DNA of 64,000 bases from Candidatus Iainarchaeum sp. (GCA_030649735.1 JAUSFL010000023.1:1-64000); one strand, 5' to 3'; shown: positions 1,453 to 49,308, numbered from the stretch's first letter. The notes: a model not told the origin generated them from the letters alone. Made by a program: numbers and translations.

Positions 1453-1522
1453 AAACACTAAAATTAGGACAACTAAGAATAAACAACCCAACCAAAAAAT
1501 ACTAATTAAAAAAGCACAAAAT

Positions 1523-1597
1523 AGCGCGGTAGGGCAGCCAGGAGTGCCCGTCGGGCTCATAACCCGGAGGTCGGAGGTTCAAATCCTTCCCGCGCTA
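1523..1597 (+). tRNA. Initiator tRNA-Met (CAT)
   Basis: AGCGCGG...CCGCGCT-A with A1-U72 pair and GGG-CTCATAA-CCC anticodon arm, both initiator hallmarks. Confidence 0.96.
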
Positions 1598-1736
1598 AAA
1601 AAACTATAAAAACTACTCCTAATCTTATTTAAAGTAAAAAAAAGCAATTTGAGCTAAAATAAAGCAATAAAACAACCTAGATTGTGAATTTTTAACAAAA
1701 ACCACTAATTCTATATAATAAATTAATGAGTATTAT

Positions 1737-1750
1737 AGTTAGGCACTACA
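1737..1750 (+). repeat. AGTTAGGCACTACA motif copy 1
   Basis: Exact 14-mer in the AT-rich intergenic region. Confidence 0.9.
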
Positions 1751-1919
1751 CTGTGAGCCATTATAAATTTGCAGCCAACAGCTAAAAATAGAAAAAAAAT
1801 AAACACTTAAAAAAACAACTAAAAACAACAAAAGTGAAAAAGACAAAAAAACACAAACTCAAAAAAGAAACAAAATTAAAAAAATAAAACTACAACCACT
1901 CATTGTTTTACAACTTAAT

Positions 1920-1933
1920 AGTTAGGCACTACA
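1920..1933 (+). repeat. AGTTAGGCACTACA motif copy 2
   Basis: Exact 14-mer; 16 bp identical to copy 1 (ATAGTTAGGCACTACA). Confidence 0.9.
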
Positions 1934-1984
1934 ACCACACAAAATACTAAGCCTCAAAACAACACTAATAAAACAATACTAGTA

Positions 1985-2047
1985 ATTACTATAATGACGA
2001 GTAATGAGCGTAAACTATTTAAGTAAGTACAATCATTACTATAATGA
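1985..2047 (+). promoter_or_regulatory. Putative operator: 13-bp direct repeat ATTACTATAATGA (1985, 2035); second copy lies in the palindrome TCATTA-CTA-TAATGA
   Basis: Seen directly; the copies flank a TATA-like TATTTAAG and overlap the first ATG of the wHTH gene. Confidence 0.45.
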
Positions 2048-2466
2048 GATCAAAAATGGGCTTTTTAGATAAAATTTTAAATATTTTTCGAAAAAAAGAG
2101 TTAGGCACTACAAAAATAGAAAAAACAATATATGAAATCCAAAAAGAAGAATTTGAAGAAATCCATAGTGTTTGGGATTACTTAAAATTTGTTGAAAACA
2201 CGCAGGCATTCCACCTTACTAGCGTAATTGGGTTTGAAGAATGGATTACAATGGGTGAAATAAAACGAAGAATTAAGGAATTATTTACTGTAGAATATGA
2301 GAATGAAAGAAGCCTTTACCCATACATAAAAACCCTAGTAGATTGCGGCCTTTTTGAAGTTTCAAATGTCGGTGGAAAAAGAAAATGGAGAAGAAAAGAG
2401 CTTTTGATTATTGTGAAAAAGAAAAAAAAAGAGACTGAGCAAATCAGAGAAATCAGGGAGAATTAG
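2044..2466 (+). CDS. Winged-helix DNA-binding protein with N-terminal amphipathic helix
   Basis: WITMGEIKRRIKELF...SLYPYIKTLVDCGLFEVSNVGGKRKWR resembles a wHTH with wing; MGFLDKILNIFRKK from the alternative ATG 2056. Confidence 0.7.
   Translation: MRSKMGFLDKILNIFRKKELGTTKIEKTIYEIQKEEFEEIHSVWDYLKFVENTQAFHLTSVIGFEEWITMGEIKRRIKELFTVEYENERSLYPYIKTLVDCGLFEVSNVGGKRKWRRKELLIIVKKKKKETEQIREIREN
2099..2112 (+). repeat. AGTTAGGCACTACA motif copy 3 (inside wHTH CDS, encodes ELGTT)
   Basis: Exact 14-mer. Confidence 0.9.
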
Positions 2467-2502
2467 TTAATTTACGAGCAAAAATTAATTGATTTTTAAT
2501 TT

Positions 2503-3099
2503 TCAAAGATTGCGTAATGCATTATAATTTTTGTTAAAGTTCATTAATCTTTCAGATTTGGAATAATTCTGTTTAAACCAGGGGAAAGAAATGACTTTTT
2601 GCGCTGTTTCAAGCAAAACCCGCCTGTAATTTTCGTCAATTTTTTGGTTTTGCTGGATTAAATTAAGCAAGTTTTTTATTTCCTCTTCAATCTTTTCATG
2701 GCTTTCAGAAGTTGAAAGAATGAAAGTCCTGTCAATTAATTCCTCTAAAGACTTTACAACCAAATGGTCTTCAACGTCTTTTTCATTAAGGTAATAGACT
2801 GCTTTCCAATCCCCTTTAGTTTGCCATTTATGGGTTGGGTTATTTCCTGTAAGAAAAAAATTTTTTAAATTTGAAAAAATTTCCGGGGGAATGATAACAC
2901 AATTTTTGCCTTGTTTAATATATGGTACTTTTGAAAGTATTCCATTTCTATGATATGCGTAAGTTTTGCCATTGCTTTTAGTCACTCTTTGAGTGTACCC
3001 ATAAATTGCGCGGAATAGTTTTTGATAAGTATATGTTGAATGGCTCATTGTTTCTGGAATTATGAATTTATATTGAATAAAATAGCTCTTTTCTGCCAC
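2503..3099 (-). CDS. Hypothetical protein, possible Cas2-like/ferredoxin-fold N-terminal domain
   Basis: Long ORF; GTG 3099 follows an SD-like GGGTGTG (ORF-track start 3144); pattern FIQYKF...QKLFRAIYGY...GILSKVPYIKQGKNCVIIP. Confidence 0.6.
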   Translation of the reverse strand: MAEKSYFIQYKFIIPETMSHSTYTYQKLFRAIYGYTQRVTKSNGKTYAYHRNGILSKVPYIKQGKNCVIIPPEIFSNLKNFFLTGNNPTHKWQTKGDWKAVYYLNEKDVEDHLVVKSLEELIDRTFILSTSESHEKIEEEIKNLLNLIQQNQKIDENYRRVLLETAQKVISFPWFKQNYSKSERLMNFNKNYNALRNL

Positions 3100-3229
3100 T
3101 AAAGCACACCCTTGAATTCCAGTATTATGTTTTTTATAATACAAAAGAAATTACTTATGTATAATATAAATACATAAATAAATACTTTTGCTTTTCTTTA
3201 AAAAAAATTAAAAAATGAGAAGAAATTGG

Positions 3230-3541
3230 TTATTTTCTTCTCTGATATCTATATTGTGGAGCTGGTTGTCTAGCTGGCGCTTCTTCTTCCTCAATTTCTA
3301 AGGCTTTAGAAGGGCAAGTTATTACAATATCTTTTACAGATTTTACAGTCCTATACGGAATGCTTTTTTCGCTGATTATTTTTTTGGCCTCTTGCTTGCT
3401 TCGCACTCTTAAAGGCTCTGTTGTGATAGTTTCAATTCTTCCTTTTTCAAGGTTTATTACCAAATCGAAGACTTTTCCCTTATATTCAGCATTATCTGTG
3501 TAGATATCCATTCCAAAAAGCTTTGAGATTCTTGCTGTCAT
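3230..3541 (-). CDS. PRC-barrel domain protein (CdpB2-like cell-division protein)
   Basis: SKLFGMDIYTDNAEYKGKVFDLVINLEKGRI...IPYRTVKSVKDIVI PRC-barrel signature. Confidence 0.85.
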   Translation of the reverse strand: MTARISKLFGMDIYTDNAEYKGKVFDLVINLEKGRIETITTEPLRVRSKQEAKKIISEKSIPYRTVKSVKDIVITCPSKALEIEEEEAPARQPAPQYRYQRRK

Positions 3542-3742
3542 TAAATTCACCCCATTAATATTGATATTAGGTTTTGAAAACCATTATACTGAAGTCAAGA
3601 AACTATTTAAATCTTACTAATTTTTTTCAAAACCAGTATTTTTCAATAATAGTGGAACTAAACCCACCCCAAAACTACATAATTATTGCTTTGTTTCATT
3701 AATTCTCTCTTGTCCTAATATCGTGTGCTTTTTATCCTAATT

Positions 3743-3756
3743 TGTAGTGCCTAACT
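3743..3756 (-). repeat. AGTTAGGCACTACA motif copy 4 (contains the xerA TAG stop)
   Basis: Plus strand TGTAGTGCCTAACT. Confidence 0.9.
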
Positions 3757-4725
3757 TTGCTCTTTTATCGCTTCTTTTTCAATTATTTTCTTTTTTTGCA
3801 TTGTGTCAAAAGGGCTGACTACTTTTTTCAGCTCGTCTGTTGTGACTTGGGTGTAAATTTGGGTTGTGCTTAGGTTTGAATGGCCTAGCAGTTCCTGGAT
3901 TTTTCGGATATTTTCTCCGCTTTCCAGTAAATGCGTTGCGAAGCTGTGGCGTAGTTTGTGTGGCGTGATGTCTTTTGTTATTTTTGCCTTTGCTGCTGAT
4001 TCTTTGATCATTCTTTCGATTGTGTCAGTGCTTATTGGGGTTGCGTTTTTTTTGCTGAATACAAATGCGCTTTTGTTTTTTTTCTTTTTTAAGTATTTTT
4101 TTATTTCACTAATCCATTGTTTTGAAAGGATTATTATCCTGTCTTTGTTTCCTTTCCCGCCTTTTACGCGGGCTATTCCTTCTTCTAGTTCCAGGTCTTC
4201 GGTTTTTAGCTTGCTGGCTTCTGAAACCCTGCAGCCAGTGCTGTAAAGGAATTCTAAGATTAGCCTGTTGCGTCCTGCTTTTGTTGCTTTGAAGAGGAGT
4301 TTTAATTCTTCTTTTGTCAGTGTTATTGGAAGTTTTTTGGCTTTTTTTGGGGTTTTTATTTCTTCAATTATTTTTAAGTGCAGCAGCGTGTGGTAAAAGT
4401 ATTTTAGCGCTGAGAGCGCTAGTGCTATTGTTGAATTGCTTGTTTGCCTTTTTTCTTTCATTTCTGCCATGAATGAGATTATGTCTTCTCTTTGCGCTTC
4501 TTTGGCTGGTTTTTTGAAGAATTGCAAAAACATTTCAACATATAATTCATACATGGTCAAGGTTTTTTGTGAATAGCCGGCGACTAGCAGTTCTTGCCTG
4601 AATTTTTTTACAATCGCTTGGTTTTCTTCGCTTAATTCTGGCTTTGCGGTTTTTCTTTTTTCAAATTCCGAATTTGTAGTGCCTAATTCACCAATCGTAG
4701 TGCCTAACTCTTCTATTGTCCCCAT
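3751..4725 (-). CDS. xerA: XerA-like tyrosine recombinase
   Basis: SAM-like N-domain; catalytic R (TGCRVSE), K (GKGNKDR), HKLRHSFATHLL, LLGHS, TTQIYT. Confidence 0.9.
   Translation of the reverse strand: MGTIEELGTTIGELGTTNSEFEKRKTAKPELSEENQAIVKKFRQELLVAGYSQKTLTMYELYVEMFLQFFKKPAKEAQREDIISFMAEMKEKRQTSNSTIALALSALKYFYHTLLHLKIIEEIKTPKKAKKLPITLTKEELKLLFKATKAGRNRLILEFLYSTGCRVSEASKLKTEDLELEEGIARVKGGKGNKDRIIILSKQWISEIKKYLKKKKNKSAFVFSKKNATPISTDTIERMIKESAAKAKITKDITPHKLRHSFATHLLESGENIRKIQELLGHSNLSTTQIYTQVTTDELKKVVSPFDTMQKKKIIEKEAIKEQS
4675..4709 (-). repeat. Motif copies 5 and 6 (AATTAGGCACTACA 4675-4688; AGTTAGGCACTACG 4696-4709)
   Basis: One mismatch each, 21 bp apart; encode ELGTT twice in the XerA N-terminus. 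Confidence 0.9.
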
Positions 4726-4760
4726 ACAATAATTACTCTCTTCCGCTTTAAATTTTTAGG

Positions 4761-5003
4761 CTAATTTTCTAGTTTTGCAAAGTGGAATAGCTCTTTTGCC
4801 TGGATGTAGTTGTATATTGCAGCAATTCCTGCAAGGAATGCCAGGAAATAGAATCCAAAAGACATTGTGTGGTTATTGGCAATTTGTTCCAGCAGGCCTT
4901 CAATCATTGTCCAAAAGAATAATGTGGCTAAAATAACCCCTATTATGAATTGGATTGCTGATTTTGCAAATATTTTTTTTGTTTTGTTTGTTGTTTGTGG
5001 CAT
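4761..5003 (-). CDS. Small two-TM membrane protein
   Basis: Two hydrophobic segments; ATG start. Confidence 0.7.
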   Translation of the reverse strand: MPQTTNKTKKIFAKSAIQFIIGVILATLFFWTMIEGLLEQIANNHTMSFGFYFLAFLAGIAAIYNYIQAKELFHFAKLEN

Positions 5004-5123
5004 TATTTTATGATATTTTTTGCATTATTAAATCAAATCCATCATATACATAATTGCTTTTCGCTTTTTTCCCAAAAAATATGTTTAAATTTTATTAGTT
5101 TTATTCTGTTATTGGGTGTTTGA

Positions 5124-5303
5124 ATGGTTGTGGATAGTAAGAATTTTCAGCGCAGGGGTTCAATGGCGCAGTATGGCTTGCCTAAGTCTAGAAAGTGCAT
5201 GAATTGCCAAAAGGACACTGTTGATGATGGATCTCATGCTTGGCTTAGGGGCTTTTGCACTGAAAAATGCCATGATGATTACATTGAAAAATTAAGAAAG
5301 TGA
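5124..5303 (+). CDS. 59-aa TRASH/treble-clef-like zinc-finger protein (absent from ORF track)
   Basis: MVVDSKNFQRRGSMAQYGLPKSRKCMNCQKDTVDDGSHAWLRGFCTEKCHDDYIEKLRK; CxxC...FCxxxC; SD-like GGGTG upstream. Confidence 0.7.
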   Translation: MVVDSKNFQRRGSMAQYGLPKSRKCMNCQKDTVDDGSHAWLRGFCTEKCHDDYIEKLRK

Positions 5304-11665: not shown

Positions 11666-11829
11666 GCTTAAACATAACCGCCTTTTTTCTTTACTAAACT
11701 TGCTCCAGAAAATTCTTTAAAAACATCACTTATATATAATAAACTTGTTTTTTGGCAAAGAAAACAAAAGTTTAAAAACAAGTTTAGCGTCATTACTACA
11801 GATTTTGATTATCATTGGGGTGAAGAATA

Positions 11830-12099
11830 ATGTACAAATACACAATTGCTCGACAGCTTGCAACAAAACGTGTCATAACAAACCGCGGTGACGAAGTGGG
11901 CCGGTTAACCGACCTTTTAGTCAACGAAAATACTGGGGAACTTGAAACCTTGTTGGTTGAAGTTGACCGTGACAGCAAAGTTATCAGGAAAATCGGCGCA
12001 AAAGACAAGATTTTGCATATTCCTTTTAGCGCAGTAACTGCTGTTTCTGACGTTTTCATTGTTGACGAGCGCGAATTGGCAAATGTCGAATCGGATTGA
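11830..12099 (+). CDS. PRC-barrel domain protein (CdpB1-like)
   Basis: KRVITNRGDEVGRLTDLLVNENTGEL...IPFSAVTAVSDVFIV. Confidence 0.88.
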   Translation: MYKYTIARQLATKRVITNRGDEVGRLTDLLVNENTGELETLLVEVDRDSKVIRKIGAKDKILHIPFSAVTAVSDVFIVDERELANVESD

Positions 12100-37924: not shown

Positions 37925-38923
37925 ATGAAACAAGTCAAGGCTTCAGCTCCGGGAAATCTGTTCTTTGCAGGAGAGCACGCAGTGGTTTACAATTATCCAG
38001 CAATTGTCACTTCCATTGGAAAGCGGACTTTTGTCACAGCTTCTTCAAGAGAAGATATTATAGTTGAAATTGAGAGTAGTGCTTTTGGAATTGCGACAGC
38101 AAAAAACCGCAATGGCCAGTTGATTGAGCGCTCCATGGAAAAGAAAGAATTGAATTCTGTAATGGATTTGTGCGAGAAAGTAATTCAAGACTTCAAGATT
38201 TCTGACGGCTTTTCCTTAAAGATTGAGTCCGAAATTCCAGTAGAGTCTGGAATGTCTTCAAGCACTGCTGTTTTGTGCGCTAGTTTTTGCGCAATCACTG
38301 AATTGTTCGGTCAGCACGTAAAGCCTGAAAAGTATTTTGATTCTTTGTATCCTTTGCAGGTGAAAATTCACGGTGGAAAGGCTTCAGGCGCGGAAATTTA
38401 CTCTTCTTCAGTTGGTGGATTCAACAGGATTCAAAAAGTTGAAGAGAACGGAAAAGTCGTGCAGAAAGTAAAGTCTTTGGGAAAGCAAGAGTTTTCAGTG
38501 GTTATTGGGAACACTAAAGTGCGCGGCCCAACAGCACTTGTTGTTGGAGTTCATCACCCAAGTATAATTAAGAGATTTCCAGAATTAGTTCGGGATTCTT
38601 GGAAAAAAATTGAAAAAATCGTGAAGTCAATGCAGTCAGCAATAAAAAAAGGGGATGTGGTAAAAGTTGGAAAGTTAATGACTGCAAACCAGAAAGTTCT
38701 TTCCAAAATTATGCTTTCTCACCCAAAATTGGACGATTGCATTACTGAAGCCTTGAAGGCCGGTGCTTTAGGAGCAAAGCTTTCTGGCGGAGGCTGGGGC
38801 GGAGTAATGTTTGCCTTAGTGCGCAAGGAAGACGAGGATAAAGTTGCAAAGGCAATTGAAAGCACTGGAAGCGAGGCAATAATTACCGAAATTGGCGGAG
38901 AAGGAGTCAGAGTTGAGGAATAA
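37925..38923 (+). CDS. mvk: Mevalonate kinase (GHMP family, atypical motifs)
   Basis: SAPGNLFFAGEHAVVY, IPVESGMSSS, GAKLSGGGWGG; operon context. Confidence 0.85.
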   Translation: MKQVKASAPGNLFFAGEHAVVYNYPAIVTSIGKRTFVTASSREDIIVEIESSAFGIATAKNRNGQLIERSMEKKELNSVMDLCEKVIQDFKISDGFSLKIESEIPVESGMSSSTAVLCASFCAITELFGQHVKPEKYFDSLYPLQVKIHGGKASGAEIYSSSVGGFNRIQKVEENGKVVQKVKSLGKQEFSVVIGNTKVRGPTALVVGVHHPSIIKRFPELVRDSWKKIEKIVKSMQSAIKKGDVVKVGKLMTANQKVLSKIMLSHPKLDDCITEALKAGALGAKLSGGGWGGVMFALVRKEDEDKVAKAIESTGSEAIITEIGGEGVRVEE

Positions 38924-38932
38924 TTTGATATT

Positions 38933-39490
38933 ATGAAAAAGAAAATTATCGTTGGAATTACTGGCGCTTCTGGAATAGAATACGCTATCGAGTTCTTGAA
39001 GGGACTGAAAGAGCGCAAGGAAATAGAGACTCACTTGATAATTAGCGAGGCCGCAAAGAAAGTTCTCGAAATAGAGACCGAATTCAAAAGCAAGGATCTG
39101 GAAAAGCTTGTTGACTTTGTTTACGACAACAAAAACATGGCTGCTTCAGTAAGTTCTTCGAGCTTTAAGATTGATTCAATGATTGTAATTCCAGCTTCTG
39201 TGAAAACCTGCTCTGCAATAGCGAATGCTTACACTGACGAATTGATTGTGCGCTGCGCTGATAACATGTTAAAGTTTAAGAAAAAATTAGTTGTTTGTAT
39301 TAGAGAAACGCCATTAAGTTCCGCTTGCCTGAAAAATTTGCACGAGCTTTCACTGATGGGTGCAGTTGTGATGCCTTTAAGTCCTGGCTTTTATTTGAAT
39401 CCAAAGTCTAAAAAAGACTTAATCTTTTTTATGATTGGTAAGTGCCTTGATTCTTTGGAAATTGACAATGACTTCAAAAGGTGGAAATAA
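38933..39490 (+). CDS. ubiX: Flavin prenyltransferase UbiX
   Basis: VGITGASG, SSSSF, PASVKT, RETPL, PGFY. Confidence 0.93.
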   Translation: MKKKIIVGITGASGIEYAIEFLKGLKERKEIETHLIISEAAKKVLEIETEFKSKDLEKLVDFVYDNKNMAASVSSSSFKIDSMIVIPASVKTCSAIANAYTDELIVRCADNMLKFKKKLVVCIRETPLSSACLKNLHELSLMGAVVMPLSPGFYLNPKSKKDLIFFMIGKCLDSLEIDNDFKRWK

Positions 39491-49294: not shown

Positions 49295-49308
49295 AGTTAG
49301 GCACTACA
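49295..49308 (+). repeat. AGTTAGGCACTACA motif copy 7 (distal)
   Basis: Exact 14-mer immediately after the gltX stop. Confidence 0.85.

Follow-up and report, generated by a model that had tools for sequence, protein, structure and literature searches.

Near the left end of a 64,000-nt stretch of DNA from Candidatus Iainarchaeum sp. (GCA_030649735.1, JAUSFL010000023.1:1-64000; the whole stretch is called the window here), four genes coding for a winged-helix protein, a protein of 198 amino acids (AA), a PRC-barrel protein and the recombinase XerA share an AT-rich block with six exact copies of one oriented motif, TTAGGCACTAC. An earlier note on this DNA had proposed that genes and motif together may be a chromosome-organizing module. 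We find that the local observation is real and far beyond chance, but that it joins two separate layers, a set of genes and a repeat. With its 64 kb, the window forms the beginning of a contig of 108.6 kb, in a genome assembly (G000) of 1.28 Mb that consists of 51 contigs and is 92.7% complete, and which the names carried by homologues place in Iainarchaeia; G001 denotes a congener and G003 a genome of the same family and another genus.

A core chromosomal cluster of the class Iainarchaeia

The succession of xerA, the PRC-barrel gene and the 198-AA gene, converging on the winged-helix gene, is a core chromosomal cluster of the class Iainarchaeia, formerly Diapherotrites. In the window the winged-helix gene runs on the + strand and ends at 2466, and is followed on the – strand by the 198-AA gene, which ends at 2503, the PRC-barrel gene and xerA, so that the four genes converge at 2.48 kb as the earlier note had described. 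We followed this arrangement over 109 loci, 29 class loci drawn from a search with the 198-AA gene and 80 more species loci, to which the PRC alignment led. The four genes are present in the same order and orientation in all class loci that reach far enough (26/29). Among the species loci with sufficient room, xerA lies upstream and co-oriented in 73/73, the 198-AA gene downstream in 75/76 and the winged-helix gene converges in 72/73; the genes are thus co-located almost everywhere in relatives. Of the 121 class genomes, 108 contain the 198-AA gene, as do 50 of the 51 that are of high quality, always as one match, and all four genes are single-copy in G000. Two genomes of a sister genus keep the cluster without the motif. 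In the library searched, we found no paper linking Iainarchaeota or Diapherotrites with XerA or PRC-barrel proteins and no description of the four-gene cluster.

The recombinase is the archaeal XerA equivalog. Its gene (3751..4725, – strand) codes for 324 AA, and the protein scores 273.5 bits against NCBIfam NF040815 (recomb_XerA_Arch, cut-off 220) over profile positions 2-262 of 263. It carries the Pfam domains Phage_integrase and SAM-like, and the catalytic residues R166, K191, H256, R259, H282 and Y291 are invariant in 8/8 aligned orthologues; with a score above the equivalog cut-off and intact catalytic residues, the name XerA stands. It is the sole close copy in the genome, and the XerA proteins of other families are 53-63% identical to it. 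Its first 30 amino acids form an N-terminal tail without counterpart in relatives; G001 XerA lacks this tail, which in G000 bears two motif copies. The spacer between xerA and the PRC-barrel gene is variable (window 3556-3821 compared with L020 11072-12179): it measures 210 bp and holds one motif copy here, contains an extra gene of 220 AA in G001, and 911 other letters in a related strain (contig of run X4). Upstream of xerA on the same strand, an open reading frame (ORF; 4761..5003) codes for a small membrane protein of 80 AA with a weak DUF389 match, below cut-off; as only 16 of 69 loci gave a tblastn match to it in this place, it is not counted in the cluster.

The PRC-barrel gene (3230..3541, – strand) codes for 103 AA from a conserved ATG. 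The protein is small and single-domain, matches PF05239 with 36 bits (cut-off 21.2; residues 7-82 of 106) and is matched by the PRC-barrel chains 8qzo and 8onw of the PDB with E values of 5e-7 to 2e-5, and may be called CdpB-like. According to the available text of two 2023 bioRxiv preprints, the CdpB proteins, which are PRC barrels, take part in division by FtsZ and bind SepF, and the present genome encodes one SepF and two small PRC-barrel proteins. The gene for the second of these lies at 11851-12075 of the window, at a distance of 8 kb from the cluster. It is preceded by some 60 nt, at 11789, by a half-box, GTCATTAC, which is one letter off the operator of the winged-helix gene described below; this 8-mer has few intergenic positions, of which this is one.

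The 198-AA protein is a new family. Its gene (2503..3099, – strand) starts with GTG; the ORF reaches 3144, and the codon matching 3099 is the start in all relatives. There are 441 homologues, with 49 invariant columns among 32 aligned sequences, and none of Pfam, NCBIfam or PHROG holds a family for it. A profile search of 1.8 billion proteins with this family returned 81 matches, none in a named family (one of them, to an Ig-repeat protein of 1798 AA, looks spurious), and an Atlas search returned only the protein's own cluster. The protein is basic and aromatic-rich. In its AlphaFold2 (AF2) model, a confident one with a predicted local distance difference test score (pLDDT) of 87.1, the N-terminal domain is ferredoxin-like and the C-terminal half consists of helices. 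Compared with the PDB by Foldseek, this model had a best E value of 0.18, to generic ferredoxin-like folds, and no Cas2 was among the 48 matches listed. The label 'Cas2-like' given to this gene previously thus finds support neither in a sequence family nor in a PDB fold match, and on the predicted model it would denote no more than a shared generic fold.

The winged-helix gene (2056..2466, + strand) codes for 136 AA from a conserved ATG, in an ORF that opens at 2044 (140 AA). The 275 homologues of the protein conserve a core of residues 40-125 and belong to no named family of Pfam or NCBIfam. The core is modelled by AF2 with a pLDDT above 90 and is matched by Foldseek with probability 1.00 to Fur, PerR, F93, H1 and RosR, so that the winged helix–turn–helix fold announced for this gene is borne out by the model and its structural matches. 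Upstream of the gene we find a palindromic box, GTAATTAC (1982..1989), which is its conserved operator pattern, with related ATTACTATAATGA repeats nearby at 1985-1997 and 2035-2047. A TATA-like sequence, TTTAAGTAAGTAC (2018..2030, + strand), is aligned with TTTAAGTAATTAC at the same place in relatives and probably acts as a promoter element. In relatives the promoter block reads GTAATTAC-ta-GTAATTAC, followed at a distance by TTTAAGTAATTAC and then by ATTAC repeats up to the start codon (L033-L061, L184-L263). Of 98 loci with enough room, 97 have one or more GTAATTAC boxes in the 300 nt upstream of the winged-helix gene, and 72 have two or more; these 300-nt stretches, which make up 5% of the DNA of the 98 loci, hold 244 of its 260 boxes. 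The whole of G000 has only eight GTAATTAC boxes, one being that at 1982. Because the recognition region of the protein is conserved across the class, the GTAATTAC box is most likely its target, and the position of the boxes over the gene's own promoter suggests that the gene most likely represses itself. The operator and the TTAGGCACTAC motif are different sites. The winged-helix gene and the GTAATTAC boxes represent a clean candidate regulator–operator pair of an uncharacterised family. In other families (L034, L039, L044, L047, L057, L059, L060), one to four CTCACT-type words stand upstream of the winged-helix gene. One genome, G030, has four ACTCACTTTT copies at 51-52 bp spacing at the locus, out of eight in that genome, the rest being at background level. 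These CTCACT-type words may be an older, local counterpart of the TTAGGCACTAC repeat.

To the left, the cluster is separated from a tRNA-Met gene (CAT; 1522..1598, + strand; ARAGORN, Rfam tRNA 60.3 bits) by an AT-rich spacer (1599..2055) that holds two TTAGGCACTAC copies as well as the operator and promoter of the winged-helix gene. It measures about 445-457 bp from the end of the tRNA at 1598, depending on whether it is counted to the opening of the ORF at 2044 or to the conserved start at 2056, and this part of the earlier description is confirmed. The GC content is 24.5% at 1601-2200 and 28.5-33% up to 3800, for about 41.5% in the contig. Positions 1600-1920 have no homology to G001. Rfam found only the two tRNAs, and no known RNA in the spacer. 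Among contigs mapped on the locus, those of the likely source run are collinear with it over 1551-5200; no strand-changing joint is listed, in a material of contigs that cannot reveal rare forms, and the other joints listed have short sides of 85% likeness and probably come from other organisms. Exactly between the convergent genes, at 2478-2506, lies an imperfect inverted repeat, GCAAAAATTAA-ttgattt-TTAATTTTCAA, which fits the rule TAA(N)7TTA and is without counterpart in G001; probably it serves as a terminator in both directions.

A dispersed repeat of one family

The second layer is the motif. Scanning confirmed the six exact oriented copies in the block, three on each strand. On the + strand, copies 1 (1739..1749) and 2 (1922..1932) lie in the spacer and copy 3 (2101..2111) in variable N-terminal codons of the winged-helix gene, which read ELGTT; copies 2 and 3 are orthologous to G001 copies at L020:9467 and L020:9648, respectively. 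On the – strand, copy 4 (3744..3754) lies in the variable spacer between xerA and the PRC-barrel gene, where its TAG is the stop codon of xerA, and copies 5 (4676..4686) and 6 (4697..4707), 21 bp apart, occupy codons 13-17 and 6-10 of xerA, again read as ELGTT. The copies were said to bracket the genes; with one inside the winged-helix gene, two inside xerA and one over its stop codon, they do not do so cleanly. The length of 14 bp given for the motif also needs correction, the shared exact core being 11 nt inside a degenerate 16-nt consensus, ARAG-TTAGGCACTAC-A. The motif is non-palindromic, without dyad symmetry or an adjoining palindrome. One further exact copy of TTAGGCACTAC lies at 49297 of the window (+ strand). 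With up to one mismatch, the window has seven matches for 0.38 expected, a number reached in 0 of 100 shuffles.

Most of the copies lie away from this locus. The genome contains 40 exact copies of TTAGGCACTAC on 16 of its 51 contigs, for 0.62 expected from base composition, and 20 shuffled, composition-matched control words had 0 or 1 exact copies each. Another 33 copies have one mismatch, compared with 1-23 for the control words, and include a variant, ATAGGCACTAC. Thirty-four of the 40 exact copies are outside the locus, on 15 other contigs. The repeat is also restricted in its distribution: a 12-mer of the motif occurs in all three other genomes of the family (39, 11 and 8 copies) and in only two of 37 genomes of the order's other families (3 copies and 1 copy). 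The motif was not found with up to one mismatch at the 29 class xerA loci (100,352 bp), and no exact copy was found at the 80 species xerA loci (575,680 bp). The presence of the motif near xerA in other genomes, on which the proposal of a joint module depended, is thus contradicted by 109 loci. Only the congener G001 also has the motif here, in seven local copies that share one strand and lie within the winged-helix gene or upstream of it, with none at xerA; the oriented bracket is therefore peculiar to G000, as it is absent from G001 xerA and from the other loci. Family-restricted and mostly located elsewhere, the motif does not mark this locus. It is a family-specific dispersed repeat, not a chromosomal landmark.

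The copies are mostly intergenic. ORFs take up 92% of the genome, and 23 of the 40 copies fall between them (binomial 6e-16); of 18 copies within ORFs 16 are in the sense direction and in frame, reading LGTT; the ORF caller is crude and both the intergenic and the sense counts are approximate. LGTT occurs 24 times in the proteome, compared with 5-11 times for similar tetrapeptides, and 14 of these 24 are encoded by the exact motif. Because the LGTT excess is mostly encoded by the exact motif, the DNA drives the peptide and not the reverse.

The copies of G000 share only 16-28 nt, with no longer element body, and five or six of them are immediately adjacent to a box of the TTTTTTAAAA type. The arrays of G001 either have the motif and a GCGGAGCA box in alternation, in units of 44-45 bp, or repeat the motif at 21-22 bp spacing. 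The arrays are built of units of 15, 22 or 44 bp, their sizes are not the same in the two congeners, and at motif arrays the contigs of G001 stop or contain Ns. The clearest case of expansion is an orthologous housekeeping gene, presumably coding for a diphthamide-synthesis enzyme, in which G001 (C72, L025 ~5059-5230) has an in-frame insertion of 141 nt relative to G000 (C27 11269). The insertion consists of motif/GCGGAGCA units and two small hairpins, directly after a motif copy common to both genomes. Solo copies are exact at orthologous sites whose flanks are 67-82% identical (G000 compared with G001, and for one promoter copy G000 compared with G003). The motif looks like a protein-recognition site able also to multiply, the binding of a protein being suggested by these sequence features. 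It represents an unexplained genome feature of one DPANN family, a 16-nt motif exact at orthologous sites, found in phased arrays and able to enter genes in frame.

Two other regions of G000 deserve mention. A low-GC (37.7%) accessory island (C23 6100-24446; L001, L002) carries seven same-strand copies in successive intergenic gaps; its genes code for a glycosyltransferase, a radical-SAM/SPASM enzyme, a GNAT protein, two tRNA-synthetase-like proteins and three TrmB-like regulators, and it is largely absent from G001-G003. On C45, two perfect inverted pairs of the ATAGGCACTAC variant, at 38436-38463 and 39182-39206 (L066, L067), stand on either side of one gene, which codes for a secreted or membrane protein of 218 AA. 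One pair is head-to-head around an 8-bp spacer and the other tail-to-tail around 3-5 bp; neither turned up in G001-G003 or G007, and they are the only two inverted motif pairs in the whole genome. The IMG/VR database, scanned with a 14-mer, gave mostly single chance matches and one contig of 45 kb, filed as viral and of higher GC content (47.7%), with seven core copies. There, tandem 15-nt copies (KLGTTELGTT) precede each of two internal repeats in a protein of 489 AA (L083 8059-9597) that has no Pfam family; since this contig carries tandem copies, the motif exists outside the four family genomes searched. Two candidate explanations of the motif were rejected: the TrmB-like winged-helix paralogues of about 280 AA, which on C23 have motif copies upstream of them and were considered as its binder, are present in 31 of 41 genomes of the order with a distribution that does not track the motif, and for an origin from a tRNA the closest tRNA match, in the D-arm, has two mismatches.

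A joint reading and its rivals

The reading that best accounts for both layers, to which we give a probability of about 0.55, is that of a core XerA/division gene cluster overlaid by a family-specific dispersed repeat that binds a protein or is selfish. In the cluster, XerA would resolve chromosome dimers, and its two co-oriented partners may set the time or place of this reaction with respect to division by FtsZ/SepF. As an adaptor, the PRC barrel would make the connection with the division machinery; the 198-AA protein, which is basic and rich in aromatic residues, would be an accessory that binds nucleic acid or XerA. The three proteins would thereby jointly take the part played by FtsK in bacteria. 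The winged-helix gene would repress itself via the GTAATTAC boxes. TTAGGCACTAC would be the recognition site of a sequence-specific DNA-binding protein, also able to spread, and only in this genus would it have come to occupy the rapidly evolving spacers and N-terminal tails of the cluster. Because archaea lack FtsK (available text of PMC8371274), the coupling of Xer to division in archaea is an open question, for which xerA adjoining a PRC-barrel gene and the conserved 198-AA gene offers a concrete candidate set of three proteins.

Several observations weigh against this reading. Gene linkage makes the tie of the cluster to division plausible, and the co-transcription of xerA, the PRC-barrel gene and the 198-AA gene and contacts between their products are likewise deduced from their arrangement. 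PRC-barrel genes of other archaea adjoin many unrelated housekeeping genes (available text of a 2023 bioRxiv CdpB preprint). With six copies in 3 kb (Poisson 8e-10) the locus is the densest motif cluster of the genome, and the largest motif array of G001 lies at the same place, so a specific tie of the motif to a protein encoded at the locus is possible. The approximate ORF-based counts weaken the reading of the repeat, and its spreading, deduced from one clear insertion and differences in array size, competes with the reading of a conserved site. Finally, no dif site was found in the genome, where the two odd motif-built pairs on C45 are the only pairs of this kind and neither has the form TAA-N6-8-TTA. 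A dif site would be a single pair of imperfect inverted arms of 11 bp, 6-8 bp apart, with TAA and TTA at their inner ends. TAA(N)6-8TTA is the most conserved feature of archaeal dif (available text of PMC11840125). A scan of the window for it gave only AT-rich candidates at chance level, such as that at 2478, which is without counterpart in G001; a dif candidate on C46 is absent from G001-G003, and no site conserved between relatives was found.

The earlier note had proposed that the oriented repeats mark the chromosome terminus or origin and that a local protein ties this region to the membrane or divisome, as in MatP/matS or Noc/NBS. The density of the motif here, the switch of orientation between left and right copies, and the adjacency of a DNA-binding gene, xerA and a PRC-barrel gene agree with this proposal, as does a copy number of 40, which is within the range for matS, NBS and SBS sites. 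Most copies, however, lie on the other contigs, the motif is non-palindromic and absent from the 109 other xerA loci, the local copies of G001 point in one direction and do not flank xerA, and the conserved target of the winged-helix protein is a different, palindromic box. Moreover, the genome has two orc1/cdc6 genes, one at 103 kb on the contig of the window, next to sepF, and the other on C13, and no motif copy lies near either of them. In the five genomes with large contigs (5/5), 47-160 kb separate the cluster from either of the two orc1 genes, between which it is placed, which means that its large-scale position is conserved and is neither beside nor opposite an orc1 gene. (The sepF and orc1/cdc6 genes are divergent neighbours, at C49 102481-104166, beyond the window.) The copies are on 16 of the 51 contigs of an unclosed assembly. 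We consider the marking of a terminus or origin improbable, and a module of the MatP/matS or Noc/NBS kind does not fit genes that are class-wide but a site that is limited to one family and is not conserved with them. It is somewhat less doubtful, although still unlikely, that the motif is a solo binding arm of XerA, comparable to XDS, used for self-regulation and for stalling or unloading SMC (structural maintenance of chromosomes) complexes at many places, the true dif being a pair of arms. The motif is 11 bp long and begins with TTA, so that its complement ends with TAA as in archaeal dif, a point that also counts against the joint reading; three copies touch xerA, two in its first codons 21 bp apart and one at its stop; and one perfect inverted arm pair exists on C45. 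Nevertheless, the genome contains no 11-6/8-11 pair oriented as TAA...TTA, the C45 pairs have the wrong polarity or a spacer of 3-5 bp and were not found in G001-G003, the motif is missing from the xerA loci of other families in spite of 53-63% XerA identity, and G001 has no copy at xerA. The boldest version, which we hold to be rather unlikely, is that the module replaces FtsK: the PRC barrel would bring XerA to the SepF/FtsZ ring, the 198-AA protein would activate it or be its partner in handling DNA, and TTAGGCACTAC, with TTA at its inner end as in archaeal dif, would be the 11-bp binding arm of XerA, multiplied in this one family into ~40 solo sites of the XDS type. If this were true, XerA at solo TTAGGCACTAC sites would control its own gene and stop or unload SMC complexes.

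A different line of explanation denies the repeat any host function and makes it a purely selfish, miniature, in-frame-tolerant element, whose local density would be an accident of permissive spacers. We regard this as a possible, minority view. It is favoured by the 141-nt in-frame insertion of motif units in G001, by the array sizes that differ between congeners and the contigs that break or carry Ns at arrays, by the seven same-strand copies in a low-GC accessory island without counterpart in relatives, and by the over-representation of LGTT. It accounts poorly for copies that share only 16-28 nt without a longer body and for solo copies that stay exact at orthologous positions across genera in diverged flanks; in addition, a Y1/RAYT transposase (PF01797) was not found in the 92.7% complete genome, and no relation to a tRNA or att site was found. 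An integron-like or Xer-module cassette system, with G|TTAGGC as the core recombination site, is very unlikely. Copies do occur at gene boundaries, with single genes flanked by copies on C23 and C45; an extra gene is present, both in G001 and in X4, in the xerA-PRC spacer, which holds a motif copy; and the GTTAGGC of the motif fits the integron core GTTRRRY. XerA, however, scores 208.8 bits against the integron-integrase model TIGR02249, below its cut-off of 265, solo copies lack the paired inverse core and hairpin of attC, the extra gene of G001 is not flanked by copies, and no alternative junctions were seen in the mapped contigs, which cannot show rare forms. Last, a small mobile island at tRNA-Met, with its own integrase and iteron-like repeats, would account for the adjacent tRNA, the low GC content and the presence of a tyrosine recombinase. 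This reading is already contradicted by the cluster and hardly credible: no direct repeat of the 3' end of tRNA-Met is present downstream of the block, the recombinase, of which the genome has no second of the kind, is an XerA equivalog, and the four genes are class-wide, single-copy and syntenic. The block is thus not an island flanked by att sites, a possibility that the earlier note had itself named as fatal to its proposal.

Comparison with known systems

The joint reading, that of a XerA/division cluster with an overlaid repeat, can be set beside several known systems. As in the archaeal Xer/dif systems of Pyrococcus abyssi and Thermoplasma acidophilum, XerA is a single-copy chromosomal equivalog with intact catalytic residues. 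The difference is that xerA is fixed here in a cluster with a PRC-barrel gene, the 198-AA gene and the winged-helix gene; no such partners of xerA are named in the available text of PMC2958812, PMC8371274 and PMC11840125. In haloarchaea, the available parts of published work place a dif-like site upstream of the xerA operon and report that dif coincides with SMC-dependent boundaries. The PRC-barrel protein resembles CdpB1, CdpB2 and CdpB3 of Haloferax volcanii and Archaeoglobus fulgidus in being a small single-domain barrel, encoded in a genome that also has SepF and a second small PRC-barrel gene. It differs from them by its recombinase neighbour, since the main text of the CdpB preprints gives no Xer or recombinase neighbour; the words 'xer' and 'recombinase' occur 0 times in the main text of both 2023 preprints, their supplementary neighbourhood tables being outside this check.

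As for the motif, it shares with the sites of MatP/matS, Noc/NBS and SlmA/SBS the format of an 11-16 bp sequence of which a genome has a few dozen copies. In those systems the site is a palindrome and keeps to a single sector of the chromosome; the motif is non-palindromic, occurs also in tandem arrays and inside genes, and is spread over 16 contigs. The Rickettsia palindromic elements and the REP elements offer another comparison. Like the former, and like REP/BIME with RAYT, the motif is dispersed and family-specific, occurs as solo copies and in arrays, has an in-frame insertion in a housekeeping gene, and has a reverse complement that starts with GTAG; in contrast with these elements, its unit is only ~16 nt, it has no palindrome and no RAYT/Y1 protein, and its solo copies lie at orthologous sites.

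The functional parallels are bacterial, namely the activation of XerD by FtsK-gamma and the unloading of SMC by XerD at XDS. The likeness lies in the niche that the cluster may fill, the coupling of Xer to division or chromosome organization. The difference from FtsK-gamma/XerD is that no FtsK homologue is involved, that the partners here are unrelated proteins and that binding of the motif by XerA is putative. On the side of the sites, bacterial XerD unloads SMC at solo XDS sites, as stated in the available parts of published work, and these multiple solo sites of the Xer type constitute a precedent for the boldest reading of the motif.

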